From IMG/VR virus record IMGVR_UViG_2648501669_000001: 10,947 nucleotides of DNA. One strand, given 5' to 3'. Under the pieces are notes generated by a model. The model did no database searches. It was not told where the DNA came from and worked only from the letters and a program-made list of their open reading frames with translations. This DNA comes from a virus (taxonomy: Duplodnaviria > Heunggongvirae > Uroviricota > Caudoviricetes). Positions within the stretch are counted from its first letter, which is position 1, and each line of letters begins with the position of its first letter. Below are positions 1-10,947 of the stretch, piece by piece. A program made the translations under genes and the position numbers.

Positions 1-20
1 TAGTGTGGTAGGTGGTGGGT

Positions 21-159
21 CTGATGTCCGGCGGTGCTTTTGCCGTTACGCACCACCCCGTCAGTAGCTGAACAGGAGGGACAGCTGATAGAAACAGAAG
101 CCACTGGAGCACCTCAAAAACACCATCATACACTAAATCAGTAAGTTGGCAGCATCACC
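21..159 (-). mobile_element. Truncated IS1 copy (terminal inverted repeat plus first 139 bp), inverted, with its outer terminus abutting phage DNA at 160
   Basis: Positions 21-159 are the exact reverse complement of 10611-10749, which begins GGTGATGCTGCCAACTTACTGAT, recognised as the IS1 end. Positions 1-20 do not continue the IS1 sequence. Confidence 0.85.
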
Positions 160-339
160 GAAAGTGCGTTATCTGCAATGACGATAAAGGGTAATTCGTT
201 TACCTACGAGTCAATTGCGGTTTTACAACAACTGAAAAGGGATTACGAAAAACAACTCGTAAAACTCATTCAGCAAGAACGGCGCAAGGCTGGCAATTAC
301 TCACCAATTACACCGATTAAAGTACGCTTAACTCGATAA
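160..339 (+). other. Possible 3' remnant of an upstream gene truncated by the IS1 insertion (perhaps terminase large subunit C-terminus), or a small 53-aa ORF from ATG 178
   Basis: The frame is open from the IS1 junction to TAA at 337-339, ending 9 bp before the portal start. There is no convincing Shine-Dalgarno before ATG 178. It is below the ORF-track length cutoff. No family was recognised. Confidence 0.3.
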
Positions 340-348
340 GGATTTAAC

Positions 349-1872
349 ATGTTTAATTTTTTCAAACGCAAAAAAGATATGCCCGTGAATCCGGTTAAGA
401 AAATCGGTATTCGCCAACACCGCAAATTATTTGTAGATCGCAAGATTGAAGAATTTACCAAAGACTTACATAAACGCTCTTTGGGATTGGTTGAAAGCGA
501 CCGCATTGAAGGAAGTATGGCGCGTAATGTCATCACTGGCAGCATTAACAGCGCGATTAAGGGGTCCGCATCACGTCTATACAATCAAGGCCGTTATCTT
601 GCGTTAAACACTTCTATTGGCTCCCGTTATTGCCAACACGTTATTGATTCCGTGGTAGGTACTGGCTTACAGCCTCGAACCTTCGTTATGAAAGGGGAAA
701 AGCTGGACGCAACCACTAACACCGCTATTGAGAATGCTTTTTGGCGTTGGGCTAGCTCTCAGAAACGATTCTCGCGCATCGGAAAGATTAACTTCCTTGA
801 ATGCTTAAAGTTGATGGAAAAAGAGCGCGTGATGGGTGGTGATGCGTTTCTGGTACTCCATGAAGATGGTAAGGATCTGCAAGTATCCATTTATGGTGCG
901 GATTGTGTTGATTGGTCAGATCAGCGCACCTTAGATAACGGTAATGTCGTTTACGCTGGCATCGAATATGAAGATGAAAAGCCCGTTGCATATTGGTTTA
1001 GGCGTCGTGACCTGTTTACTCAGTCCTTTACTGGCGAACGTGTACGAATCCCGGCGGAAAGAGTGCTGCATTACTTTATCCCTGGTACAGCCGACGCATT
1101 ACGTGGTATTACTGATTTCTTGCTAATAATCAAAGATATAGCTCATCTTGAAGCGTTCCGCGAGACTGTAATAATCGGTAAGCGCGTGCACGCAAGCAGC
1201 ATGGCCTTTATCACAAGCGATAAAGAAAATCAAGATTCATTTGATGTTGGTGAAGATGACACGGAAAACTATCAACCGCCAACAATGATCACTGACTTCG
1301 AACCGGGTACTATCAATATACTGGAACCGGGGCAAGACGTTAAAACGGTACAATCAACTCAAGGCGGCGATGATTTCGAAAAATTCAATGAAGCAATGCT
1401 GACTTCTATTTCTATGGGTCTGTCTAGCTTTAAACAAGCTCTTACAGGAGATACAAGTTCTATTAACTACTCATCAGCAAAATTCGGTCATAATATTGAA
1501 TCCGCTCGCTTCAAGACGCATCAAGATCGCTTAGTTGATACTGTTATTCTTCCATTATTTGAGGCGTTTTTACGTCACGCGGTAATTAACTCAAAAATCA
1601 ATGTTCGCATGACGCAGATCGATTCTATTTTGGATGCAACGACAATTATTAGACCTCGCGTTACGTCTATTGAACCGATCAAAGATATTCAGAGTGAAGT
1701 TCTGTTAATAGAAAGCGGATTGAAGTCTAAAGCTCAGGTCATTATGGAAATGGGTCAAGATCCGTCTCAGGTCTTTAAAGAAATTGAGGCAGAAAAACAC
1801 ATGCTAAATACATGCGTCGTGAGTGAGGGTGAGACTGAAAAAGAAAAATCTCCTGATACTCAAAATGAATAA
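349..1872 (+). CDS. Phage portal protein (lambda gpB-like family)
   Basis: 507-aa ORF with AAGGA Shine-Dalgarno 7 nt upstream. Size and position (first gene of the head module, directly before the protease-capsid gene) fit a portal. The C-terminal region (LLIESGLKSKAQVIMEMGQDPSQVFKEIEAEK) resembles the lambda gpB C-terminus as I recall it. Confidence 0.8.
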   Translation: MFNFFKRKKDMPVNPVKKIGIRQHRKLFVDRKIEEFTKDLHKRSLGLVESDRIEGSMARNVITGSINSAIKGSASRLYNQGRYLALNTSIGSRYCQHVIDSVVGTGLQPRTFVMKGEKLDATTNTAIENAFWRWASSQKRFSRIGKINFLECLKLMEKERVMGGDAFLVLHEDGKDLQVSIYGADCVDWSDQRTLDNGNVVYAGIEYEDEKPVAYWFRRRDLFTQSFTGERVRIPAERVLHYFIPGTADALRGITDFLLIIKDIAHLEAFRETVIIGKRVHASSMAFITSDKENQDSFDVGEDDTENYQPPTMITDFEPGTINILEPGQDVKTVQSTQGGDDFEKFNEAMLTSISMGLSSFKQALTGDTSSINYSSAKFGHNIESARFKTHQDRLVDTVILPLFEAFLRHAVINSKINVRMTQIDSILDATTIIRPRVTSIEPIKDIQSEVLLIESGLKSKAQVIMEMGQDPSQVFKEIEAEKHMLNTCVVSEGETEKEKSPDTQNE

Positions 1873-1914
1873 CCCAACGGGGCGCAATGCCCCCAATAAT
1901 TTTCAAGGTGATCT

Positions 1915-3969
1915 ATGACAACAAAACAATTCCGTCGTAGTGTTGCGGTAGATACCCCTGATTTTATCGAAGAAAAAGACGAACGAATTATTGAATTGGC
2001 TTTCTCAAGCGAGGCTCCTTATACACGTTATTACATGAATCAGGACGGCGAGCAAGTCGAATTAAAAGAGATTCTCGTACACGATGAATCAGCGGTTGAT
2101 CTATCCGTTTTAAACGAGACTAACGCAAGTCTTCTGTTTAATCACAATCTGGATCTTCATATCGGCAAGATTGTTCCTGGCTCCGCTCGTATTGACGAAG
2201 ACCGTGTAGGTCGTTGCCTTGTCCAATTCTCCAAAGTAGGCCAACTGGCTAATGAATGCTTTGAGAAGGTAAAAGAGGGAACACTTTCACAAGTTAGCGT
2301 CGGTTATAACGTTCTTGATGGCAAAGCCGATTTTAACAAAGGGATCTATTATGTTACACGCTGGCAACCTTTCGAATGCAGTCTTGTAACGTGTGCCGCA
2401 GATCCATTTAATGCGGGTGTTGGACGCTCTCTAAATACAGACAACGAAATGATTGTTTTGGAGGGTGAACAAGTGGAAGACGAAATTAAAGATACTCCGG
2501 TCGAAGAAATTAAACCGGAAGATGAAGAAAAACGTTCCGAAGAAGAGAAAGAGGAACAAGAAAATGAAGAAATTGATTCCGATTCTGGAAATAGTGCTGA
2601 CAGTGGCGAAGATGTGGAAGAACCGCAAGAAGTAACGCCAGAAGAAAAAGAAGAACGTTCCGAAGATGAACCGGAAGAAACAGAAGAACTAAATAAAGAT
2701 ACAGACGAGAACGACGAAACGGAAAATACATCCGAACCAGTCGAAGAAGAAAAGATTGAAGACGAAGAAAAACCGTTTGAACGTTCTCGCGAAGATACCG
2801 CCGAAATTCGTGCTATCGGAAAACATCTAAATATCTCCGAAGACGTGATTGAAGCTGCAATTAAAGATAGTGCCGTGACTATTGAAAATTTTAAAGAAAA
2901 AGCACGCGCACTAAATACTACCGAATCTAAAACTTTTGTTAAAGGAAAAATTACCATGACCGATACCATTAAAACTCTGGAATCCCGTTTCGATCTTAAT
3001 AAAGCTGTACGTGCAATCGCAGAGGGTAAAGCCCTGACTGGCGCAGAAGCTGAATATTCTCAGGAAGAAGCACGTAAAGCCGCAGCGCGTGGTCGTGCGC
3101 AGCGTTCTAACTCCGTATTCATTCCGGCGTCCGCTCTGCGTGCTAGCCAGAACATGGAATCTCTGAAACCAGTAGTTGGTGAAGAAATCCGCCATGATTG
3201 CTTCGTTGATATGATCATGGAACGTTCTATTCTGGGTAAATTGGGTGTGCGTACCATTAACGCAACTGGTCCTGTTTCTCTGCCGTCTCTGACTTCCAGC
3301 AATCTGGAAAACTTCGGTTTTGTTGCAGAAGGTCAATCCGCTGGTGAAGGTACTATTAAGTTTGCAGCGCAGCCGATGACTCTCAAGACTTTTAACGGAA
3401 TTGTTCCTGTAACGCGTCAGGCTGCAATCACACTGCCCAATATTGGCGCTATCGTTGGTGAGCACATGCTGAAACACAGTGCTATCGCTCTGGAAAAAGC
3501 GATTCTGTCCAATGCTGCTAACACTAACGCTCGTGATGGTCTGACTAAGATCCTGACCGACGCTGGCAAAGTTAAACAGATTGATTGGACCTATGCCGAG
3601 TTCCTGAAACTGGTAGCTGAACTGACCGACAAAGGTTATAACGAAGCGGATCTGGCATTTGCTACCCGTGGTGTTGTTAAAGCTGAACTGGCAGCGCAAC
3701 TCAAAGCAGCTAATGTTCCGGGCTTCCTGGTAGAAGGCGATAAACTGGTTAACCGTCCGATCTATGGCTCTGGTGTAGTTGCTCAGGATACCATGCTGTT
3801 TGGTGACTTTAGCTCCCTTGTTGTTGCAGACTTCGGATCGCTGGAACTGGATTGCGACGATACCACAGGTCGCGCGGCTGGCAACCTGTACTTCCGTGTA
3901 TGGGCTGATCTGGATTGGGCTGTTATGGACCATAGCGCACTGACCGTAGTTCAGAAAAAAGTTGACTGA
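1915..3969 (+). CDS. Prohead protease - acidic scaffold/delta linker - HK97-fold major capsid protein fusion
   Basis: 684-aa ORF with AAGGTGA Shine-Dalgarno. The N-terminal ~170 aa look like an HK97-type prohead protease. Residues ~183-300 are a hyper-acidic low-complexity linker (EEKRSEEEKEEQENEE...). The C-terminal ~290 aa are HK97-fold capsid-like (e.g. GDFSSLVVADFGSLELD). It sits immediately after the portal. Confidence 0.8.
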   Translation: MTTKQFRRSVAVDTPDFIEEKDERIIELAFSSEAPYTRYYMNQDGEQVELKEILVHDESAVDLSVLNETNASLLFNHNLDLHIGKIVPGSARIDEDRVGRCLVQFSKVGQLANECFEKVKEGTLSQVSVGYNVLDGKADFNKGIYYVTRWQPFECSLVTCAADPFNAGVGRSLNTDNEMIVLEGEQVEDEIKDTPVEEIKPEDEEKRSEEEKEEQENEEIDSDSGNSADSGEDVEEPQEVTPEEKEERSEDEPEETEELNKDTDENDETENTSEPVEEEKIEDEEKPFERSREDTAEIRAIGKHLNISEDVIEAAIKDSAVTIENFKEKARALNTTESKTFVKGKITMTDTIKTLESRFDLNKAVRAIAEGKALTGAEAEYSQEEARKAAARGRAQRSNSVFIPASALRASQNMESLKPVVGEEIRHDCFVDMIMERSILGKLGVRTINATGPVSLPSLTSSNLENFGFVAEGQSAGEGTIKFAAQPMTLKTFNGIVPVTRQAAITLPNIGAIVGEHMLKHSAIALEKAILSNAANTNARDGLTKILTDAGKVKQIDWTYAEFLKLVAELTDKGYNEADLAFATRGVVKAELAAQLKAANVPGFLVEGDKLVNRPIYGSGVVAQDTMLFGDFSSLVVADFGSLELDCDDTTGRAAGNLYFRVWADLDWAVMDHSALTVVQKKVD

Positions 3970-4098
3970 ACTCCTGTAGAACCTTCTGAACCTTCCCCCG
4001 ATTCGGGGGAAGAAAATCTGATTCCTAAACCGGAAGAAGAATCCCAGACGGTTACGGCGAAAGCCACAGCAAAACGAGGCCGCAAGCCTAAAGAATGA
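3970..4098 (+). other. In-frame open extension after the capsid UGA stop (42 codons ending ...VTAKATAKRGRKPKE); candidate readthrough product
   Basis: Same frame as 1915-3969, with no stop codon until TGA at 4096-4098. The stop context is UGA-A. It contains the 36-bp core repeat 4051-4086 that is identical to 9994-10029. Confidence 0.4.
4051..4086 (+). repeat. 36-bp exact direct repeat, copy 1 (gttacggcgaaagccacagcaaaacgaggccgcaag); encodes VTAKATAKRGRK
   Basis: Identical to 9994-10029. The flanking sequence is also similar at DNA and peptide level. Confidence 0.9.
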
Positions 4099-4103
4099 TA
4101 ATT

Positions 4104-4130
4104 AGCCCTGCCTAGTGCGGGGCTTTTTTG
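4104..4130 (+). terminator. Rho-independent terminator downstream of the capsid gene and its extension
   Basis: GC-rich hairpin agccctgc / CTAGT loop / gcggggct followed by TTTTTT. Confidence 0.6.
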
Positions 4131-4159
4131 TATGTAAATACTCCATAAAGGGGGTAACT

Positions 4160-4450
4160 ATGTTCAAATTATCAGAATCACAATTATCAAGAATGTTTAA
4201 GAGTGCTCCTGTATTTTCGGTGGAAGGTGGTAAATCAATTCGTGCTTATCATGAAATTACTACTACCGACGAATCGGGGGTAATGACAGAAACCGAATTT
4301 CTATTCTGTCGTGAGGGAGACTTAAATCAGGGTGATATTGTCATTGTAGAAAACCAGCGTTTCAAAGTTCAATACGTTAAGCGCAATGGTGATAATACCA
4401 CTGATTGCTTTATTACTCTGGCAGGGGGTACACATGCTCGCTACCGTTAA
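4160..4450 (+). CDS. Small head-tail connector / head completion protein (putative)
   Basis: 97-aa ORF from the internal ATG at 4160, preceded by AAAGGGGG Shine-Dalgarno. The longer ORF-track start at 4115 lies inside the upstream terminator. Size and position (between capsid and tail terminator) fit a connector. No strong motif was recognised. Confidence 0.5.
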   Translation: MFKLSESQLSRMFKSAPVFSVEGGKSIRAYHEITTTDESGVMTETEFLFCREGDLNQGDIVIVENQRFKVQYVKRNGDNTTDCFITLAGGTHARYR

Positions 4451-4856
4451 TAATATGCCTAGACTGAAAATCAAACGCGCCTTGCAAGATATTATCGAAC
4501 AAGATTTAGGTCTGGCTTTAAACGTAGAACAAACTCAGCAAGGTTTTAGTGATGACGTGGTTTGTTGGATTACTGGCATGAATGAGACTTACACTAGGGT
4601 CCGTGGTGGTAATGCAATGCAAGCTGAATGCGTTATCGAAATGCAATTATATTCTCAGATTCATGAAACAAAAATCCATGAGGGTATTTGCCAGATAATC
4701 CAGATTCAGCCGGATAACCCACGTTTTAAAGATTTGGGCTTCTCTATTTCAGATATCACTCCAGTAGCCTCTAATACCGATTATGACGATGATTCTAGTG
4801 ATGGGGGTATCGTTGGGACACTTAGCCTTAAATTTTCTTATCTAGCGCGTTTTTAA
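4434..4856 (+). CDS. Tail terminator protein, lambda gpU-like (putative)
   Basis: 140-aa ORF from ATG 4434 with AGGGGG Shine-Dalgarno, overlapping the previous gene by 17 bp. VCWITGMNETYT...ECVIEMQLY and the acidic C-terminal TDYDDDSSDGG resemble lambda gpU (VAVYLTGAEYT...ELHIEVFL...YDYRRDDDAG) as I recall it. Confidence 0.55.
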   Translation: MLATVNNMPRLKIKRALQDIIEQDLGLALNVEQTQQGFSDDVVCWITGMNETYTRVRGGNAMQAECVIEMQLYSQIHETKIHEGICQIIQIQPDNPRFKDLGFSISDITPVASNTDYDDDSSDGGIVGTLSLKFSYLARF

Positions 4857-4865
4857 GGGGTAATA

Positions 4866-5699
4866 ATGAATATTACACAAGATAACTTAGATATTTTCAC
4901 TGGATCACATGTTGAAGTGTCGATCTCTAACCAGATAGACAATCAGGTCGACTTTTTCGATCCTAGCTTTAGTTCTATGGAGAACATCGCAGCATTCCCT
5001 ACGCTAACCGAATCCACAGAGATAGAAACTCTGGAAGAGTACGATCAGGACGCTACGGGGAAACTTGCTGGTTATCGTAGACTGGAACCGACAACACTCA
5101 CATTAAACCGTGTTCTTGACGATGAACATCAAGCAATGTTGATGAAAGCGGTAGAGGATAAAACACCTTTACGCTTCCGTATGTTCTATGTTGTGAACTC
5201 TGGCTATAGTGCTGCTAACACTGGTTACTATGTCATCTATGACGCTTATGTCACTAGTCACAAAACCCGTGGCGCAGATAACAAAGCTGTAACACTGGAA
5301 TTTAAACTTGAACCAGATGGCGGGATTTTGGCAAGGGGTATTGCTACCGAAGGCCGGATCTTACGTCAGGGTGATTTTGGTATCGGTGCTGGTGTAAATC
5401 CTTTCAGTGGTCCTATTGATAGTGAATCTCTGACAGGAAACCGTTTCGTAACTTACAAGGGAACTGCTAGCACTAACCCTTATGGTGCTGATACATCGTT
5501 AATTCATCTTCAAGCTAATGAGCATGGCGCATGGCAATTAACCTGTAATACTTCTGGCGCACCGCGTTTACGCGTCCGAAATATTCAGGAAAACGGTAAA
5601 TCTGAATGGATTAAAGTCTATTCTACAAACGAGAAACCGACACCTAGCGAAATTGGCGCAGTGGCTAAGACTGACCGGATCGATTTCGGCGAATACTAA
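4866..5699 (+). CDS. Major tail (tube) protein with a C-terminal fibre-like domain
   Basis: 277-aa ORF with AAGGGG Shine-Dalgarno, placed after the gpU-like gene as in the lambda Z-U-V order. The N-terminal ~135 aa are paralogous to ORF 9445-9915. The C-terminal ~70 aa are homologous to an internal segment of the tail fibre (shared KPTP-x-EIGA motif). Confidence 0.6.
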   Translation: MNITQDNLDIFTGSHVEVSISNQIDNQVDFFDPSFSSMENIAAFPTLTESTEIETLEEYDQDATGKLAGYRRLEPTTLTLNRVLDDEHQAMLMKAVEDKTPLRFRMFYVVNSGYSAANTGYYVIYDAYVTSHKTRGADNKAVTLEFKLEPDGGILARGIATEGRILRQGDFGIGAGVNPFSGPIDSESLTGNRFVTYKGTASTNPYGADTSLIHLQANEHGAWQLTCNTSGAPRLRVRNIQENGKSEWIKVYSTNEKPTPSEIGAVAKTDRIDFGEY

Positions 5700-5729
5700 G
5701 GATTCTCCTACCTAAATAAAACATGACGC

Positions 5730-5763
5730 GGGGAGGTTAACGCCTCCCTTATTCCTGTTTTAT
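5730..5763 (+). terminator. Putative intrinsic terminator after the major tail gene
   Basis: Hairpin GGGGAGG / ttaacg / CCTCCC followed by a T-rich tract (ttattcctgtttta). The T-run is interrupted. Confidence 0.45.
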
Positions 5764-5779
5764 AGTGAGGTGATTCTAG

Positions 5780-8700
5780 ATGCAATCAATCCAATTTAAA
5801 CGCACACAAACGGCTGGTAAAAAACCAACGCCGGAACAATTATCACAGGGTGAATTGGCTATTAACCTTGCTGATCACGTTCTGTATACCAAAGATAAAA
5901 ATAACGCAGTAGTTCAAATCTCTGTTTCTCCAGAAAAACACGCTGAACTTAACACGAAAGTAGACCAGAATAAAACTAGCACTGACCGTGTTATTGCTTC
6001 CAACAAACAAGAGGCCGCTAATAATCTGGCTAGTGTTAAAGCTGAACTGAATCAGACTATTACCGCTAAAGACACCGCAACCAATAAGCGCATTGATGCT
6101 ACCAACACCACTGTTAGTAACTTAACCCAGACAGTTACGGCAAATAAAACCGATGCCGACACTAAGATCAATAACCTTACGGGGACCGTATCTGCGAATA
6201 AGACCGCAATTGAAAGAACCGTTGCCGCAAACAAATCTGATGCAGATAGCAAACATGCAGCTTTAACGAAAACGGTCACTGACAATAACACCGCGATTAA
6301 CAACAAGGTTAATACCACTAACACCAACGTTAGCAACTTAACTAAAACTGTTACTGCAAATAAAACCGATGCAGATAACAAAATTTCTAGCTTAACTAGC
6401 ACGGTTGCAGCTAACAAAACAGCGATTGAAAAGGTCGTTTCCGACAACAAGAAAGATGCTGATACTAAAATCAGTAACCTTACTGGCACTGTGAATAGTA
6501 ACCATACCGCTATTAACAACAAGGTAGACCAGAACAAATCATCGACCGATGCCGCAATTACAGCCGCCAACAAGCGAATTGATGGTATTGAAGGTAGTGC
6601 TAACGCAGCATATATCAAGAAGAACACAAAGACCTATCACGGCGCGTATTTGTATAGCAAGACTGGTAACTATCTGGAAGATTCAACCGCGAGAGATCTT
6701 AATTACTTCGGTGCATTCCGTACCAATGGTCAAGATGGACTCATGGATCTAACCCTTAACGTTCCTCACTCTTCCGGTAAAGCGCATGGTCGAGGATTTA
6801 CTTTCCGTTATGCGTCTGGCGGATCTCGTGTTGAAACCTATGGTTTTGATGCTCAGGGACAAAAAGCGTTTAGCTATAAAATGTATCACGAAGGGGATAA
6901 ACCGACTCCTGCTGAAATTGGCGCATATACCAAAGGCGAAATTGATAAGATGTTTATTAAAAATGTCACAATGTCTGTTCCTTCTGGTAGTGAATCCCGT
7001 GCTTATTTCAAGATTGCTACGGCTACGATCCCACAAAATGGTCGTATGGTAATGCTTCGTATCTTCGGTGGTAATGGTTATAACGTTAACTCCTATGATC
7101 AGGTTGATTTCCTTGAAATTGTTATCCGTTCCGGTAACAATAACCCGAAAGGCGTTAGTATTGCTGCTTATCGTCGAAACTCTTTGAACGTTCATCAAGT
7201 ATTTGCGGTTAATACTTCCGGTGATAACTACGACATTTACGTTAACTACGGTCGTTATACTGATAACGTTATTGTCGAATATGGTAAGACTAGCGGTGTT
7301 TCACTGACTGTTCATGACACCCCAGCTATGACTAACGTTAAGCCGTCTACTGGTGTTACAGATGGACGTGTTATTACAATGTTCAACACCGAAAACAAGG
7401 CCGGAACGTTGATGTTTGATAATAACGGACAGGGTACATATGATATTGTCAGTTTGAATAACGATTCAGGTACTGGTAAAAAATATCTTCGTAAATTCCG
7501 TAGTAAAGCCGCAGAAACAATCTGGCATGAAACTGTTCAAGGTAACGTTTATCGTTTAGCGACTGGTACTACCGATTCTAGCGAAGTTCTACGAATCACT
7601 GGTCGCACCATGTTTACTGGTAAAGGTGTATTTGATGCCGGACAAAACGTTCTTAGATTAGAGCGTCCTAGTAATCAATCAAACTATATTGAATGGCAAG
7701 ACCGCCGCAATGGTGCTAATGCTCGTCAAGGTTGGATTGGTTTTGGTAGTGCTGAAACAAATAACTTCCAATGGTATAGCGATCAGGGGAAAAACTCATT
7801 TCAGCTAGAAGCTAACGGTCAATGCTCTATTACCACTGGTGCAACTAAAATTGTATATACAAACGGCGAGTATGTAGCTGCTAACTCAAATGCATTCCGT
7901 ATGATTTACGGCAATTATGGTGCATTTTGGCGCAATGACTCCGCAAAAGTTTATCTTCTGTCAACGGCTGAAAACGATAAGTTTGGTGGTTGGAATACTT
8001 ATCGACCATTCATTTATGATCTGACTTCCGGTAACGTTCAATTAGGCGGTGATGGTAACGAAGATGCATTAACGTTAGAACGTGCAAGCCGTGCCGCTCG
8101 TTTTAGTAATGACGTTTACATTAAGAAAGGTTTTTTGACTTTCGACGCTGGGCGTTCTGGATCGCGTGATTATATTCGATTTAATCATTGGGGCGATAGC
8201 AACAACGCCCGTGATAACGTTTTATACCTCGAAGACAGCAAAGGTCGCCATTTCAGCACCGAACGTAATATGGCTACAGGTGGACTAAAGGCATATTTCT
8301 TAGGTGATCTTGAAGTTGCTGGTCAAATGAGATGGGGTAAGAATACCGGACAATCTAGCTTCAATATTCGTGCATGGGGTAATGATACTCGTAAACAAGT
8401 ATTAGAATGCGCAGATGAAAGCGGCTGGCATTTCTACACACAGCGTGCTGGCGGTCCTGGTACTACCGCAATCGAGTTTAGCGTAAACGGTAAAATTAAC
8501 GCTCCCCAACTGTCTATTAGTCAGGATGCAACCATTCCTAAGTTTAATAGCGGTTTTGGTGTTGGTGTTGCTAACGGATTGGGTGGAAATTCTATTGTTT
8601 TAGGCGATAGTGATACTGGATTTAAACAAAACGGTGATGGTGTCCTTGATACCTACGCTAATAACGTTAATGTTGTTCGTCACACATCTGGCGGCATTAC

Positions 8701-9388
8701 CTTTAACCGTCGTGTTGTTGTTGCTAACAAAAATGGTTTAGGTTATTCCGATATCTCTGATGTAACTCGTGACCGTGCTCCATTCTTGGTTAACATGGAT
8801 AGTATTAAGGGGTCTGGTGCATATTTCCCTATTATCGCTGGCTATAGTAACTTAGGTGATGTTGGTTATCGTCAGTCCTTCGAGTTTGGTTGGACGGGTA
8901 GCGGTTCGACTCACGGTTGGCGTACTGGTATTATCCGTATGCGTGGCGATAACGCCAACGGGCAGCAAGCACGCTGGGAATTTACTATGGATGGTGACTT
9001 TACCGCAGGTCGTAACGGTAGCTTTAACGATGTTTACATTCGCTCTGACTCCCGTTTGAAGATTAACAAGGAAGAATTACAGGACGGCGCATTAGAGAAA
9101 GTAAACTCCCTGAAAGTCTACACCTACGATAAAGTTAAATCTCTTTCAGATGACACAGTGATTAAACGCGAAGTAGGTATTATTGCTCAGGATCTGGAAG
9201 AAGTGTTGCCGGAAGCAGTAGGTATTCAATCCACCGAAGATCCAGAACAACCGGAAGCAATTAAGACTATTTCTAACTCTGCTGTTAATGCCTTGATTAT
9301 TAAAGCTATTCAGGAAATGGACGCCAAATATCAAGCTAAGATTGAAGCATTGACTAAAGAGATTGCCGAACTCAAAGCAACTAAATAA
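5780..9388 (+). CDS. Tail fibre protein with a repetitive shaft and a C-terminal intramolecular chaperone (peptidase S74-like) domain
   Basis: 1202-aa ORF with GAGGTGA Shine-Dalgarno. The N-terminus has a tail-fibre anchor-like motif (KKPTPEQLSQGELAINL). Tandem T/N/K-rich repeats form the shaft. GLGGNSIVLGDSDTGFKQNGDGVLD and ADESGWHFYTQR resemble the conserved distal region of P2 gpH-type fibres as I recall them. The C-terminus has an SDSRLK (S-D-x-R-x-K) autoprocessing motif followed by a coiled-coil-like tail. Confidence 0.85.
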   Translation: MQSIQFKRTQTAGKKPTPEQLSQGELAINLADHVLYTKDKNNAVVQISVSPEKHAELNTKVDQNKTSTDRVIASNKQEAANNLASVKAELNQTITAKDTATNKRIDATNTTVSNLTQTVTANKTDADTKINNLTGTVSANKTAIERTVAANKSDADSKHAALTKTVTDNNTAINNKVNTTNTNVSNLTKTVTANKTDADNKISSLTSTVAANKTAIEKVVSDNKKDADTKISNLTGTVNSNHTAINNKVDQNKSSTDAAITAANKRIDGIEGSANAAYIKKNTKTYHGAYLYSKTGNYLEDSTARDLNYFGAFRTNGQDGLMDLTLNVPHSSGKAHGRGFTFRYASGGSRVETYGFDAQGQKAFSYKMYHEGDKPTPAEIGAYTKGEIDKMFIKNVTMSVPSGSESRAYFKIATATIPQNGRMVMLRIFGGNGYNVNSYDQVDFLEIVIRSGNNNPKGVSIAAYRRNSLNVHQVFAVNTSGDNYDIYVNYGRYTDNVIVEYGKTSGVSLTVHDTPAMTNVKPSTGVTDGRVITMFNTENKAGTLMFDNNGQGTYDIVSLNNDSGTGKKYLRKFRSKAAETIWHETVQGNVYRLATGTTDSSEVLRITGRTMFTGKGVFDAGQNVLRLERPSNQSNYIEWQDRRNGANARQGWIGFGSAETNNFQWYSDQGKNSFQLEANGQCSITTGATKIVYTNGEYVAANSNAFRMIYGNYGAFWRNDSAKVYLLSTAENDKFGGWNTYRPFIYDLTSGNVQLGGDGNEDALTLERASRAARFSNDVYIKKGFLTFDAGRSGSRDYIRFNHWGDSNNARDNVLYLEDSKGRHFSTERNMATGGLKAYFLGDLEVAGQMRWGKNTGQSSFNIRAWGNDTRKQVLECADESGWHFYTQRAGGPGTTAIEFSVNGKINAPQLSISQDATIPKFNSGFGVGVANGLGGNSIVLGDSDTGFKQNGDGVLDTYANNVNVVRHTSGGITFNRRVVVANKNGLGYSDISDVTRDRAPFLVNMDSIKGSGAYFPIIAGYSNLGDVGYRQSFEFGWTGSGSTHGWRTGIIRMRGDNANGQQARWEFTMDGDFTAGRNGSFNDVYIRSDSRLKINKEELQDGALEKVNSLKVYTYDKVKSLSDDTVIKREVGIIAQDLEEVLPEAVGIQSTEDPEQPEAIKTISNSAVNALIIKAIQEMDAKYQAKIEALTKEIAELKATK
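6101..6530 (+). repeat. Tandem in-frame coding repeat in the fibre shaft (two ~72-aa units built from ~12-aa sub-repeats)
   Basis: Unit A (TNTTVSNLTQTVTANKTDADTKINNLTGTVSANKTAIER...TAINNKV) and unit B (TTNTNVSNLTKTVTANKTDADNKISSLTSTVAANKTAIEK...TAINNKV). The antisense ORF 6052-6627 is a shadow of this repeat. Confidence 0.8.
9044..9388 (+). other. Predicted C-terminal intramolecular chaperone domain of the fibre, released by autoproteolysis at Ser ~1089
   Basis: SDSRLK at 9044-9061 matches the S-D-x-R-x-K Ser/Lys dyad pattern of tail-spike and fibre chaperone domains (endosialidase, T5 pb1) as I recall it. The domain is ~113 aa, a typical size. Confidence 0.55.
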
Positions 9389-9395
9389 TAAAAGT

Positions 9396-9414
9396 CGGGG
9401 GACTAGTTCCCCCG
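9396..9414 (+). terminator. Perfect 7-bp GC hairpin after the fibre gene (terminator or RNA processing/stability element)
   Basis: cggggga / CTAGT loop / tcccccg, 8 nt after the TAATAA stop. It is followed by an A/T-rich tract but no clean T-run. Confidence 0.4.
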
Positions 9415-9444
9415 TAATAACAATTTTAATTAAGGGGTAATTCT

Positions 9445-9915
9445 ATGTCTCAATTTAATGATATTTTTACTGGTGGTCTGGTAAGTCTGTTCTATCACGC
9501 TGATACCACTAACACCGCTCTCGATCACTCCGGTTACGAAGAAATTAAAGAGTGTGCTGGTTTTCCTGAAACTGGTATCGAGCGCGGTACTGTAGAAGTT
9601 AAATCCTTCTCTTCTCAGTATAACCGTAAGCTGGTAGGGAAACTGAACGTTCCTGATCTGACTCTGACCGTTAACTACATCCCAGGCGATGCGGTGCACG
9701 AGAAGCTCATTAAAGCTGCCGAAGACGGTACTCGAATTCAGATTAAGATTGAATACTATGTTGATGCAGCAAAACAGACTGGTATTCGCACCGCTTTCAA
9801 CGGCTTTATTTCTAAAGTTGCTATGAACGGTGGCGATGAAGAAGTTGTAACCAAAGAGTTTACCTTCGCGGTGGACGGAAAGCCGATCAAACAGGAAATC
9901 TTCACTGCCGGATGA
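9445..9915 (+). CDS. Tail tube protein paralog (tube domain only)
   Basis: 156-aa ORF with AAGGGG Shine-Dalgarno. It is homologous to the N-terminal domain of ORF 4866-5699 (MSQFNDIFTG vs DNLDIFTG; GKLNVPDLTLTVNYIPGDAVHEKLIKAAEDGT vs GYRRLEPTTLTLNRVLDDEHQAMLMKAVEDKT). Confidence 0.6.
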   Translation: MSQFNDIFTGGLVSLFYHADTTNTALDHSGYEEIKECAGFPETGIERGTVEVKSFSSQYNRKLVGKLNVPDLTLTVNYIPGDAVHEKLIKAAEDGTRIQIKIEYYVDAAKQTGIRTAFNGFISKVAMNGGDEEVVTKEFTFAVDGKPIKQEIFTAG

Positions 9916-10041
9916 ACTAACGAAGAACTTCCTTTAATAGAACCGGAACCACTACCGGAACATGAAGCGGTGGGGATTCCAGAAGTAGAAGAAGTTACGG
10001 CGAAAGCCACAGCAAAACGAGGCCGCAAGGCTAAGAATTAA
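9916..10041 (+). other. In-frame open extension after the tube-paralog UGA stop (41 codons ending ...VTAKATAKRGRKAKN); candidate readthrough product
   Basis: Same frame as 9445-9915, with no stop until TAA at 10039-10041. The stop context is UGA-A, identical to the capsid case. It contains the 36-bp repeat 9994-10029. The reading frame here is taken from the ORF track. Confidence 0.4.
9994..10029 (+). repeat. 36-bp exact direct repeat, copy 2
   Basis: Identical to 4051-4086. Confidence 0.9.
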
Positions 10042-10045
10042 TTTT

Positions 10046-10075
10046 AAGCCCTGCCTTAATGGTGGGGCTTTTTTA
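10046..10075 (+). terminator. Rho-independent terminator downstream of the tube paralog and its extension
   Basis: Hairpin aagccctgcc / ttaat / ggtggggctt followed by TTTTTT. It is homologous in position and sequence to the terminator at 4104-4130. Confidence 0.55.
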
Positions 10076-10089
10076 TTGGAGTAATCAAA

Positions 10090-10596
10090 ATGGCAAATGT
10101 CGTTAATAAGCCCGGCTGGGTCGGATCATCTGCTGTATCGGTGACGGGTAAGCGATGGATGAAAGAAGCATTAACAGCTTTAAAAGTTCCGGCTCCGCGT
10201 AATATGTCGGCAATGGCTGGTCGTGGTATGGATACGGTTGTAGCTACTGCATCGTGGTCTACTTCATTGGGTAATAACTGGGGTGTAACTGCTTCAAACT
10301 ATCCTGTTTCCGGTATGCAAAGCAAAGGATCTATGGAGAACCCCGAAAACGTGGGCGTAGGCCGTCTAATTGGCGTTATCGTTGGTCAATTCAATGGCGG
10401 TACTCCTACTATGGCTGTATATCTCCAGAACGGTAGAGCGGGGAATATAACCGTTAATTTGGGTGGTGCTGCTGTCACTGTTCCTTATAACAGTATGCAA
10501 AGTGGTTTTCATTACTACTGGTTAAGCAATCCTCCGGCAGCTTTCCTCAATAACATTAAGAAGACTGGCACTAAGCAGACTTTGAAAATCTCTTAA
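10090..10596 (+). CDS. Hypothetical protein (168 aa), G/S/T/N/W/Y-rich, possibly a structural or receptor-binding accessory
   Basis: ORF with GGAG Shine-Dalgarno and a TAA stop 14 bp before the IS1 terminus. No family was recognised. Confidence 0.55.
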   Translation: MANVVNKPGWVGSSAVSVTGKRWMKEALTALKVPAPRNMSAMAGRGMDTVVATASWSTSLGNNWGVTASNYPVSGMQSKGSMENPENVGVGRLIGVIVGQFNGGTPTMAVYLQNGRAGNITVNLGGAAVTVPYNSMQSGFHYYWLSNPPAAFLNNIKKTGTKQTLKIS

Positions 10597-10610
10597 ATTC
10601 TAAATAAACA

Positions 10611-10850
10611 GGTGATGCTGCCAACTTACTGATTTAGTGTATGATGGTGTTTTTGAGGTGCTCCAGTGGCTTCTGTTTCTATCAGCTGTCCCTCCTGTTC
10701 AGCTACTGACGGGGTGGTGCGTAACGGCAAAAGCACCGCCGGACATCAGCGCTATCTCTGCTCTCACTGCCGTAAAACATGGCAACTGCAGTTCACTTAC
10801 ACCGCTTCTCAACCCGGTACGCACCAGAAAATCATTGATATGGCCATGAC
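10611..10850 (+). mobile_element. Truncated IS1 copy (terminal inverted repeat through the 5' part of insA)
   Basis: Matches the canonical IS1 sequence from base 1 (GGTGATGCTGCCAACTTACTGAT) for ~239 bp as recalled. Mismatches begin at ~10850 and similarity is lost by ~10865. Confidence 0.9.
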
Positions 10851-10884
10851 TGGAGTTGGAAGCCTGCATCTTATACACATCTGA
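10666..10884 (+). pseudogene. insA: Truncated/hybrid insA: first ~61 aa identical to IS1 InsA, then an unrelated 11-aa tail
   Basis: [61 protein letters not shown] matches the InsA N-terminus including the CPSC...CSHC zinc-finger. The C-terminal [11 protein letters not shown] diverges from the InsA helix-turn-helix region. Confidence 0.7.
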
Positions 10885-10947
10885 CGCTCACGACGATCGA
10901 TCTAGAACAAACAACACAGACTCACACCCGCAATCAACAGAAATACA

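Follow-up and report, generated by a model that had tools for sequence, protein, structure and literature searches.

A Tube-Fold Protein Linked to Tail Fibers and Candidate UGA Readthrough Extensions in a Lineage of Lambda-Like Prophages of Escherichia coli

Introduction

In the non-contractile coliphage T5, the tube protein has a diverged duplicate, p140, which makes up a single ring situated between tube and distal tail protein; around this ring lies the p132 collar, which holds the pb1 fibers; the p140/p132 pair was considered to be confined to T5-like phages, so that lambdoid phages must anchor their fibers differently (PMC10038345). Our analysis concerns a DNA stretch of 10,947 nucleotides from the IMG/VR virus record IMGVR_UViG_2648501669_000001 (Caudoviricetes), called below the window at its full length. 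At positions 4866-10041 it carries the gene of a 277-amino-acid (aa) protein with a tube-like fold, a long tail fiber gene and the gene of the 156-aa major tail tube protein. The window is the portal-to-fiber part of a lambda-like siphovirus prophage of E. coli, in a contig bounded by two inverted copies of the insertion sequence IS1. The lambda-like traits of the lineage include a gpA-type terminase, a portal of the lambda family, a fusion of protease and capsid protein, and a J-like tip.

Minor forms of phage structural proteins with C-terminal extensions are known from several systems. Extended capsid or tail tube proteins are produced by recoding in the Listeria phages PSA, A118 and A500, in SPP1 (gp17.1*) and in T3 and T7 (10B) (PMC5009743, PMC8718954). 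In Q-beta, the UGA codon ending the coat gene is occasionally read as tryptophan in E. coli, yielding the minor extended structural protein A1, the extension of which starts with a proline-rich segment (PMC6526423). The locus described here is likely to combine a canonical lambda-like tail with a tube-fold protein serving as the anchor of the tail fiber, and its capsid and tube genes both end in a leaky-type stop codon followed by a shared in-frame cassette that is probably translated by readthrough.

Gene Order and Completeness of the Tail Module

Matches of the prophage to E. coli chromosomes are confined to window positions 160-10610. An earlier note on this DNA had described a tail module with neither tape measure nor assembly chaperones; the prophage DNA merely stops at 10610, at IS1, and relatives carry these genes directly downstream. 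The HCP5S3_I4 prophage is 100% identical over 160-10610, except for an IS2 in its capsid gene, and the 39EVA prophage, at about 1.217-1.251 Mb of NZ_CP138416, is about 95% identical to that of the window. In both, the gene of a gp38-like adhesin, the last prophage gene in the window, is directly followed by a 102-aa gene, a 100-116-aa gene and an 809-aa tape measure gene; beyond these lie genes for 186-, 217- and 139-aa proteins, a 1258-aa tip protein, lysis genes and a serine recombinase. Family searches assigned the chaperone-position genes to phrog_344 (tail assembly chaperone, with a weak Phage_TAC_13 match) and, weakly, to Phage_tail_T, and identified the 809-aa protein as the tape measure (phrog_13674, 9e-64). 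They also recovered a distal tail protein (phrog_1302), a hub N-terminal domain, DUF6950, and a tip protein with Phage_Tail_Tip and the C-terminal domain of lambda J (Ig_GpJ_C, 7e-34). The tail module is canonical and lambda-like, and it is truncated by the window, the reported absence of genes being an artifact. For annotation, a block of genes "missing" beside an insertion sequence at the edge of a window is not to be equated with absence.

The extent of this arrangement was assessed by scanning IMG/VR with the 277-aa family, which gave 47 loci, mostly on contigs of 35-38 kb; reference proteins were mapped onto these and onto phage DCP80. The conserved order is terminase, 165-aa protein, portal, protease-capsid fusion, FII-like protein, terminator, tube-like/fiber gene(s), in some cases fiber accessory gene(s), tube, two chaperone-position genes, tape measure, distal tail protein, hub, DUF6950 and tip, and it is maintained down to 30-45% protein identity. 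The succession of terminator, tube, two chaperone-position genes, tape measure, distal tail protein, hub and J-type tip agrees with the lambda tail (U, V, G/T, H, M/L/K/I, J). In contrast to lambda, the fiber genes stand between the terminator and tube genes, not after J, and the chaperone-position open reading frames (ORFs) do not overlap in the loci examined. The gap between these ORFs is 9-68 nucleotides (L001 25239-25930, L002 26816-27495); therefore, the lineage shows no sign of the G/GT-type -1 frameshift arrangement that is otherwise usual.

The order of terminator, tube-like/fiber and tube genes is, by these comparisons, an ancestral trait of the lineage. The earlier note took the fiber gene to be inserted between two tube genes and expected its proposal to fail if intact relatives had the standard order with the second tube gene absent. 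The relatives retain both genes, their order is conserved to about 30% identity, and in distant relatives the tube-like domain is fused with the fiber, which speaks against an insertion. In the distant loci the tube-like protein is longer (446-485 aa; 699 aa in DCP80), as extra fiber repeats are inserted ahead of the same C-terminal end; a gp38-like gene is located between the fiber and tube genes; and the tube protein has about 252 aa, including an Ig/Hoc-like C-terminal domain. In the clade of the window, the gp38-like gene alone intervenes between the tube gene and the chaperones, whereas in distant relatives, as in the other E. coli clade, the tube gene stands directly ahead of the chaperone pair and the tape measure.

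Several observations concern individual members of the lineage. At locus L028 (14357-15263), which represents another E. coli clade, the slot between the fiber and tube genes contains not a gp38-like gene, but three tandem paralogous ORFs of 98-101 aa sharing the motif M.[YFW]W[VI].....FDIPNG[YW]..., possibly alternative fiber-tip accessory or adhesin proteins. Prophages of the family are inserted at different sites by a large serine recombinase, within codB beside prpE (39EVA) and within hicB (HCP5S3_I4), the integration splitting the target gene in both cases. The 141-kb record of DCP80 (L003, PQ671644) is classed as a T4-like Gaprivervirus; a full siphovirus structural module belonging to the present family takes up its first 22 kb or so, with T4-type genes (endonuclease VII, motA) behind it, and the record looks like a chimeric assembly with a T4-like genome or a mis-joined entry.

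The 277-aa gene was found in 54 of the 5426 complete E. coli genomes searched and is always annotated as "hypothetical protein". Roughly 1% of the complete E. coli genomes harbor this lineage of lambda-like siphoviruses, relatives of which occur in Salmonella, Proteus, Edwardsiella, Providencia and metagenomes. A scan of species-representative genomes for the family gave nothing, and in tblastn searches of 50,697 phage records with the tube-like module DCP80 alone matched.

The earlier note also considered a deletion/insertion remnant. On such a reading, a prophage in decay would have lost its chaperones and tape measure, and a fiber gene would have entered between its two tube genes. The window copy is indeed damaged: the left IS1 interrupts the 165-aa head-tail joining gene, of which the last 53 codons are left (178-339, plus strand), and the right IS1 starts at 10611, 14 nucleotides 3' of the gp38-like gene. 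Neither IS1/prophage junction is present among the 5426 complete genomes. Against a remnant, the order of tube-like gene, fiber and tube occurs in every relative examined, including intact prophages of 35-38 kb with the full downstream tail; the tube-like domain and the fiber form one ORF in distant relatives; and the ends of the window have the look of a contig that broke at a repeat, adapter-like tail included. Judged by synteny, which marks the same order as a trait of the lineage, the remnant explanation is already refuted for the lineage, and we regard it as hardly tenable.

As to the ends of the window, an IS1 copy end lies at 20-159 (minus strand), with its left inverted repeat (IRL) toward the prophage DNA, as identified from the IS1 sequence and annotations, and the left end of a second copy with the start of insA lies at 10611-10860 (plus strand), where the prophage DNA ends. 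Matches to window positions 30-190 coincide with IS1-family transposase annotations in thousands of E. coli records. The two copies are inverted, both left ends facing the 10.45-kb prophage piece; such a pair fits IS1-mediated inversion, a composite-transposon-like unit, or two independent insertions alike. The outermost bases (1-19 and 10861-10947) match neither IS1 nor the prophage. The right window end (…CATCTTATACACATCTGACGCTCACGACGA…) is similar to a Nextera transposase adapter, and the last 90 or so bases (10861-10947), judged by CTGTCTCTTATACACATCT, resemble this Illumina adapter. The IMG/VR contig L005 (10,631 nucleotides) is identical to the window over the parts compared, a rare variant included. 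Because of IS1 at both ends, the adapter-like terminal bases and the identical contig, the window is most likely a draft contig broken at IS1 repeats, its outermost bases probably being a raw contig end and not genomic sequence.

The Tube-Fold Protein as a Candidate Fiber Anchor

The 277-aa protein (4866-5699, plus strand) was assigned by sequence, structure and profile comparisons. It comprises a tube-like domain (residues 1 to about 165), an invariant Gly-rich linker (about 166-199), a fiber module (about 200-265) and a conserved C-terminus, IDFGEY. BLASTP aligns it with the 156-aa protein at 29% identity over the whole tube domain (E 1e-13), which makes the two proteins paralogs. The 156-aa protein (9445-9915, plus strand; stop codon TGA at 9913-9915) matches phrog_158 (7e-22) and Phage_TTP_11 (1e-6), and the earlier observation that two diverged tube paralogs flank the fiber gene, an unusual arrangement, is borne out. 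In the AlphaFold2 (AF2) model of the 277-aa protein, the N-terminal domain has predicted local distance difference test (pLDDT) values of 80-90 and the tube fold, a beta-sandwich with a long beta-hairpin; BFVD matches are mostly major tail and tube proteins as well. It is the 156-aa gene that occupies the tube position upstream of the chaperone pair and tape measure, while the 277-aa gene is separated from the chaperones by the fiber and tube genes in every relative. The role of tail terminator was ruled out for the 277-aa protein, its 140-aa neighbor (4434-4856, plus strand) being the terminator by fold.

The C-terminal part of the protein is related to tail fibers, as the earlier note had suspected. 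Residues 199-270 match tail-fiber PHROGs, and the last 90 or so residues are 32% identical (E 1e-5) to residues 330-385 of the adjacent fiber, both segments finishing in KPTP.EIGA. A hidden Markov model of the 277-aa family searched against 1.84 billion representatives retrieved 287 proteins, 147 of them at E ≤ 1e-10. Most of the 287 have 400-1600 aa and match profile positions of about 8-258 at their extreme N-terminus. Among the fused examples are proteins of 1049, 1057 and 1349 aa with a Peptidase_S74 chaperone at the C-terminus; each gene has the terminator-position gene on one side and a 151-153-aa tube gene on the other, beyond which come chaperone-position genes and a gene of tape measure size. 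Because the module is N-terminal in long S74-ending fibers of distant relatives, it is probably the virion-proximal part of a tail fiber, encoded by a gene of its own in the lineage of the window.

The two sides of the split are constant. Split versions always end in ...KPT..[ED][IL].A[VI]....[IVL]D[FL]G[ET][YF], and the gene that follows always starts with M..I[QK]FKRT...G[KR].PT......GE[ILV][AG]I.., whatever the fiber body, a pattern that may be expected of two docking pieces. Within the family, conservation is highest in the Gly-rich linker, LR.GDFG[IV]GAG...F.G..DSE.L.GNRFVT, which suggests a structural role at a ring-fiber junction. We consider it likely both that the tail is canonical but truncated and that the 277-aa protein is a tube-fold fiber anchor and not a second bulk tube subunit. 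The proposal of the earlier note that the tail is built from two tube subunit types is retained in so far as there are two tube-fold paralogs; its second component is best read as the anchor.

The comparison with T5 supports a relation in kind. As in T5, a diverged duplicate of the phage's own tube protein is encoded besides it, and this paralog retains the tube fold and is probably tied to side-fiber attachment rather than to the bulk tube, in a non-contractile coliphage with dispensable long side fibers and a central tip fiber. The differences are several. The T5 ring is bare and carries a separate collar, the Ig-like p132 dodecamer, whereas here the tube-fold domain covalently continues into a fiber module and, in most relatives, into a whole fiber. 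Between the terminator and tube genes there are only fiber and accessory genes; in the stretch from neck to tube genes no separate gene for a collar is evident, p132 homologs not having been directly searched. T5 p140 has two tube domains per chain and is a trimer, in contrast to one domain per chain here. The p140 gene stands among the baseplate genes, whereas the present gene adjoins the terminator gene.

Fiber, Adhesin and the Proposed Assembly

The fiber gene (5780-9388, plus strand) encodes 1202 aa, with Gp34_trimer (1e-27), phrog_1699 (2e-128) and the C-terminal intramolecular chaperone Peptidase_S74 (7e-14), and confirms the earlier description of a 3.6-kb tail fiber gene. Over 6667-8463 (1.8 kb) it shows about 80% nucleotide identity to gp37 of RB49 (megablast; RB49 and Krischvirus gp37). 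Its N-terminal 45 or so residues are conserved across the family and represent a candidate docking domain. The gene had been called terminator-flanked. Hairpins do flank it, one between the anchor and fiber genes (5730-5749, plus strand) with a weak T-tail and a GC-rich one 3' of the fiber gene (9396-9414), but the second lacks a T-run on the plus strand. The gp38-like adhesin (168 aa; 10090-10596, plus strand) belongs to Gp38_N (2e-15) and phrog_1121 (2e-34), and in tblastn it matches sequences annotated as "receptor recognizing protein Gp38", gp38 or adhesin in 117 phage records.

The locus shares with the distal fiber of T2 and RB49 a gp37-like shaft with Gp34_trimer and the S74 C-terminus, together with a separate Gp38_N partner. 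It differs in that the fiber would be mounted on a siphovirus via the tube-fold anchor, and not on a myovirus baseplate via gp34-36 and gp9, and in that, in the clade of the window, the tube gene separates the adhesin gene from the fiber gene. Capping of the cleaved gp37 tip by a gp38-like adhesin is the T2-type scheme of T-even fibers.

On these grounds the long side fiber would consist of three parts, the anchor (277 aa), the gp37-like fiber (1202 aa) and the gp38-like adhesin. The N-terminal tube-fold domain of the anchor would have arisen as a diverged duplicate of the tube gene and would take a tube-type position as one specialized ring at one end of the tube, the 156-aa protein acting as the repeating tube subunit. 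T4 gp54, like T5 p140, is a specialized ring at one tube end. We infer a single ring because the terminator role is filled, the 156-aa protein has the tube position and family signature, and the 277-aa protein is an extra paralog joined to fiber modules. That the anchor forms a ring in the tube stack is a reasonable possibility. Its C-terminal fiber module would project outward, its conserved D-x-G-x-[FY] end binding the N-terminal 45 or so residues common to the fibers of the family. The fiber would then be built outward from the anchor through the gp37-like protein, the self-cleaving S74 domain of which would be removed, to the gp38-like adhesin capping the new tip.

Several points weigh against this scheme. 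The C-terminal half of the AF2 model is of low confidence, with pLDDT below 50 over residues 162-237, and in the phage-record search no isolated, characterized phage carries the anchor module, the odd record DCP80 apart. Ring formation, ring position, the match between hexamer and trimer symmetry, and the docking contacts are predictions from sequence comparison. Furthermore, gene order suggests a head-proximal ring, whereas fiber function and the T5 precedent suggest a tip-proximal one.

Two other placements of the 277-aa protein have to be weighed against the single anchoring ring. In one, the 277-aa protein or its long fused homologs would co-polymerize with the 156-aa subunit at many tube positions and decorate the tail with fibers. 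The tube fold and detectable sequence similarity are common to both proteins, and nearly the same strong ribosome-binding stretch, TAAGGGGTAAT, precedes both the anchor gene (4855-4868) and the tube gene (9432-9447); this sharing would fit duplication of the one gene from the other, or else a translation signal common to late genes. Minor tube variants with C-terminal extensions are also known, compare SPP1 gp17.1* and the TpeX extensions of 936 phages with their binding modules (PMC8718954; PMC6669499). However, the known extended variants share an identical tube domain from the same gene, while the present pair has 29% identity and evolved separately, which points to a distinct position; T5 p140 and the tube protein pb6 are likewise just 9% identical (PMC10038345). 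The fusion of 277-type modules to S74 fibers of more than 1000 aa in relatives argues against a ring repeated along the whole tail, dozens of such fibers per tail being unlikely, and the true tube protein of distant relatives is already decorated with an Ig-like domain. We consider co-polymerization improbable.

In the other placement, the anchor would be located at the head-proximal end, directly under the terminator, and the fibers would be neck fibers or whiskers. The anchor gene invariably lies after the terminator gene and before the tube gene, and the order of structural genes in phages often mirrors that in the virion. A search of PDB sequences with the family profile gave non-significant matches only (collar spike protein, E 0.24; trigger factor, E 0.88); the former is a weak resemblance of the fiber module (profile positions 206-263) to a segment of the phage XM1 "collar spike protein". 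Besides being non-significant, this match covers a module that recurs as repeats in many long proteins retrieved with the profile. By rough length rules, a tape measure of about 809 aa corresponds to a tail of about 120 nm, and a gp37-like fiber of about 1200 aa to about 70-80 nm, so that a neck fiber would fall short of the tip. T5 p140 is the sole precedent in structural terms, and it is located near the tip (PMC10038345). We regard a neck position as rather unlikely.

In-Frame Extensions After the Capsid and Tube Stop Codons

The second tube paralog had been noted for a readthrough-like extension, and the frame is indeed open for 41 codons past the TGA at 9913-9915. The extension (9916-10041, plus strand; TNEELPLIEPEPLPEHEAVGIPEVEEVTAKATAKRGRKAKN) is closed by TAA at 10039-10041, where the segment under study ends, and is a candidate UGA-readthrough tail; a terminator hairpin follows at 10046-10070 (plus strand). 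In every locus of the clade of the window the tube stop is TGA followed by A, after which 36, 39 or 41 in-frame codons ending in ...VTAKATAKR[GS]RKAK[ND] lead to TAA and a terminator. Among the 13 DNA variants, both indels (6 and 9 nucleotides) preserve the reading frame, 1-5 stops occur in each of the other frames, and the ratio of nonsynonymous to synonymous polymorphism (pN/pS) is 0.24-0.54 (five pairs). This clade was found in 20 of the 5426 complete genomes, and in other prophages of the family the 3' part of the extension also matched unannotated sequence 3' of the capsid gene.

The capsid gene has the same organization. The fusion of protease and capsid protein (1915-3969, plus strand) ends in ...KKVD and stops at TGA 3967-3969, followed by ACT; then come 42 in-frame codons, TPVEPSEPSPDSGEENLIPKPEEESQTVTAKATAKRGRKPKE, a double stop TGA TAA at 4096-4101 (the extension spanning 3970-4101, plus strand) and a terminator hairpin at 4104-4124 (plus strand), homologous to that at 10046-10070. 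This too is a candidate UGA-readthrough tail, and it shares an identical 33-nucleotide core with the tube copy. No E. coli-clade locus departs from TGA plus A at the capsid stop, which lies behind two capsid types that are only about 38% identical. The 19 DNA variants of the capsid extension have six lengths (28, 33, 42, 43, 44 or 45 codons), with all differences multiples of three, and always close with a basic tail and one or more strong stops. The tube extension is homologous, from the stop codon onward and over its full length, to the short capsid variant NNEELPEEIPVVTAKATAKK....

Combining both genes, at least seven indels are present in the joint alignment, all of them multiples of three, for which the probability by chance is about (1/3)^7. 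Frame 0 is free of stops in all 32 variants (13 tube, 19 capsid), whereas both other frames always contain one or more, in the capsid set up to six. The junction is TGA then A in every case, and the extension is closed by TAA or a double stop; no stimulatory structure was found. UGA followed by A is a weak terminator in E. coli. The cassette is composed, as we read it, of a putatively leaky TGA-A, a Pro/Glu-rich linker, a basic tail (...VTAKATAKRGRK...), one or more strong stops and a terminator, and is carried by the capsid gene and, in this clade, by the tube gene as well. A small fraction of the capsid and tube subunits would be extended by UGA readthrough and display the basic tail on the virion. 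Comparative evidence makes it probable that readthrough of these stops is real; that the tail displays a polyanion- or DNA-binding peptide on the surface is speculation.

The sequence features of the tail were examined further. AT-hook (PF02178) scores of the variants KKVGRPPKAK and KKAGRPPKAKE are 14.2-14.7 bits (E 0.03-0.04), below the cut-off of 17.4, and the window's own tails, KRGRKPKE and KRGRKAKN, gave no AT-hook match. The extension peptide had no tblastn match in phage records. In IMG/VR, the core 17-mer was found on ten contigs outside the known family set, namely three further copies of this prophage and seven unrelated chance matches. The tail of an Edwardsiella tube protein, ...HMNVIPEAVAAKEK, was rejected as a homolog of the extension, the resemblance being too weak.

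A separate small ORF was considered and rejected. The sequences read contain no in-frame ATG, and the sole in-frame GTG is located mid-extension without an obvious ribosome-binding site. Because of this position a separate ORF cannot explain the conserved first half of the extension, and the indels upstream of the GTG also keep the frame. One predicted protein, P0083 (198 aa; contig L051 from ENA, 41-637), reads the tube TGA as tryptophan and fuses tube and extension, mimicking a readthrough product. As evidence for a sense codon at the tube stop it was discarded as a gene-caller artifact: the DNA has TGA, and the call presumably stems from a genetic code with TGA as a sense codon.

The readthrough is proposed from sequence comparison, and some observations do not favor it. 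The extension is under weak selection (median pN/pS 0.69); within its best-conserved block, GTTACGGCGAAAGCCACAG, nucleotide variation is almost nil and 17 aligned sequences show no synonymous change, and this near-invariance could reflect a nucleic-acid function or gene conversion and not protein constraint; and no relative replaces the TGA with a sense codon, the lone apparent case being the artifact P0083. Accommodating the first two points, the sequences after the stops may be untranslated and form a duplicated, terminator-associated nucleic-acid element, with a role in mRNA 3'-end stability, processing or as a recombination boundary, in which the open frame is incidental. This conserved block contains a GGC-GAAA-GCC mini-hairpin, lies about 50 nucleotides 5' of the conserved terminator, and is situated at the boundary between highly divergent capsid types and conserved downstream genes. 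On the other hand, an untranslated element leaves unexplained the frame-keeping indels, the frame that is free of stops in all variants, and the fact that the cassette begins exactly at TGA-A in both genes and closes with TAA TAA or TGA TAA. RNAalifold recovered the terminator and a 3-bp mini-hairpin only, with no covariation, and there was no match in Rfam, so that compensatory base changes and a known RNA family are both absent. We retain the nucleic-acid element as an unlikely alternative to UGA readthrough, disfavored by these results.

If translated, the extensions resemble those of the Listeria phages, SPP1, T3 and T7 in giving a minor, C-terminally extended form of the capsid and/or major tail protein from the same gene; the Listeria phages do both. 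Those systems use +1 or -1 frameshifting and mostly add Ig-like or FN3 domains, whereas here the candidate mechanism is a leaky UGA-A, the extension would be a disordered acidic linker with a basic tail, 28-45 residues in all and AT-hook-like in some variants, and one cassette serves both genes. Unlike Q-beta, an RNA phage with a folded extension of about 200 residues that is essential for infectivity, the present case is a prophage in which readthrough is predicted from sequence. In a limited search no literature report of readthrough in tailed-phage structural genes was found. If indeed read through, the cassette would to our knowledge be the first case of programmed stop-codon readthrough affecting structural genes in tailed double-stranded DNA phages.

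Other Features of the Window

All real genes of the window are on the plus strand. The remaining 53 codons of the head-tail joining protein (178-339), in the position of lambda gpW, were identified by comparison with the intact 165-aa gene in L001 and L002 and match phrog_5774 ("head-tail joining", 2.8e-9). They are followed by the lambda-family portal (349-1872, plus strand; Phage_portal_2, 6e-58) and by the protease-capsid gene described above, a single fusion of an S78 prohead protease, an acidic linker and an HK97-type major capsid protein (Peptidase_S78, Phage_capsid; phrog_617, 1.5e-68). The linker, of about 120 residues (fusion residues of about 180-300; window 2450-2800), is extremely rich in Glu and Asp, which accounts for the peak in AT skew at 2250-3000 and for long minus-strand ORFs in that region that are spurious. 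Between the capsid extension and the terminator gene, a gpFII-like head-tail attachment protein (4160-4450, plus strand) has 96 aa from its annotated start, as in L002, and matches Phage_attach with E 3.6e-4, under the Pfam cut-off. NCBIfam had no model for any of the six proteins searched.

Implications

Altogether, the data tentatively outline a so-far uncharacterized lineage in which a tube-fold ring protein would be covalently continuous with the fiber, and a portable leaky-UGA cassette on the capsid and tube genes would let a few subunits display a polyanion- or DNA-binding peptide. Compared with the described systems, two features appear to be new: a tube-fold paralog used as part of the fiber, and not as a bare ring with a collar, and a putative leaky-UGA extension cassette common to the capsid and tube genes, as against frameshift-derived Ig-like domains.

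The fixation of side fibers on the tails of lambdoid siphophages is an open structural question, to which this lineage offers a concrete and testable alternative. The anchor module, which has no Pfam or NCBIfam model and is always annotated as hypothetical, marks tail fibers in more than 100 protein clusters, and its description would improve the annotation of receptor-binding proteins and fiber engineering. If the UGA codons are indeed read through, stop-codon readthrough would join the recoding repertoire of tailed phages, and the cassette would provide a natural low-copy display site on head and tail alike.

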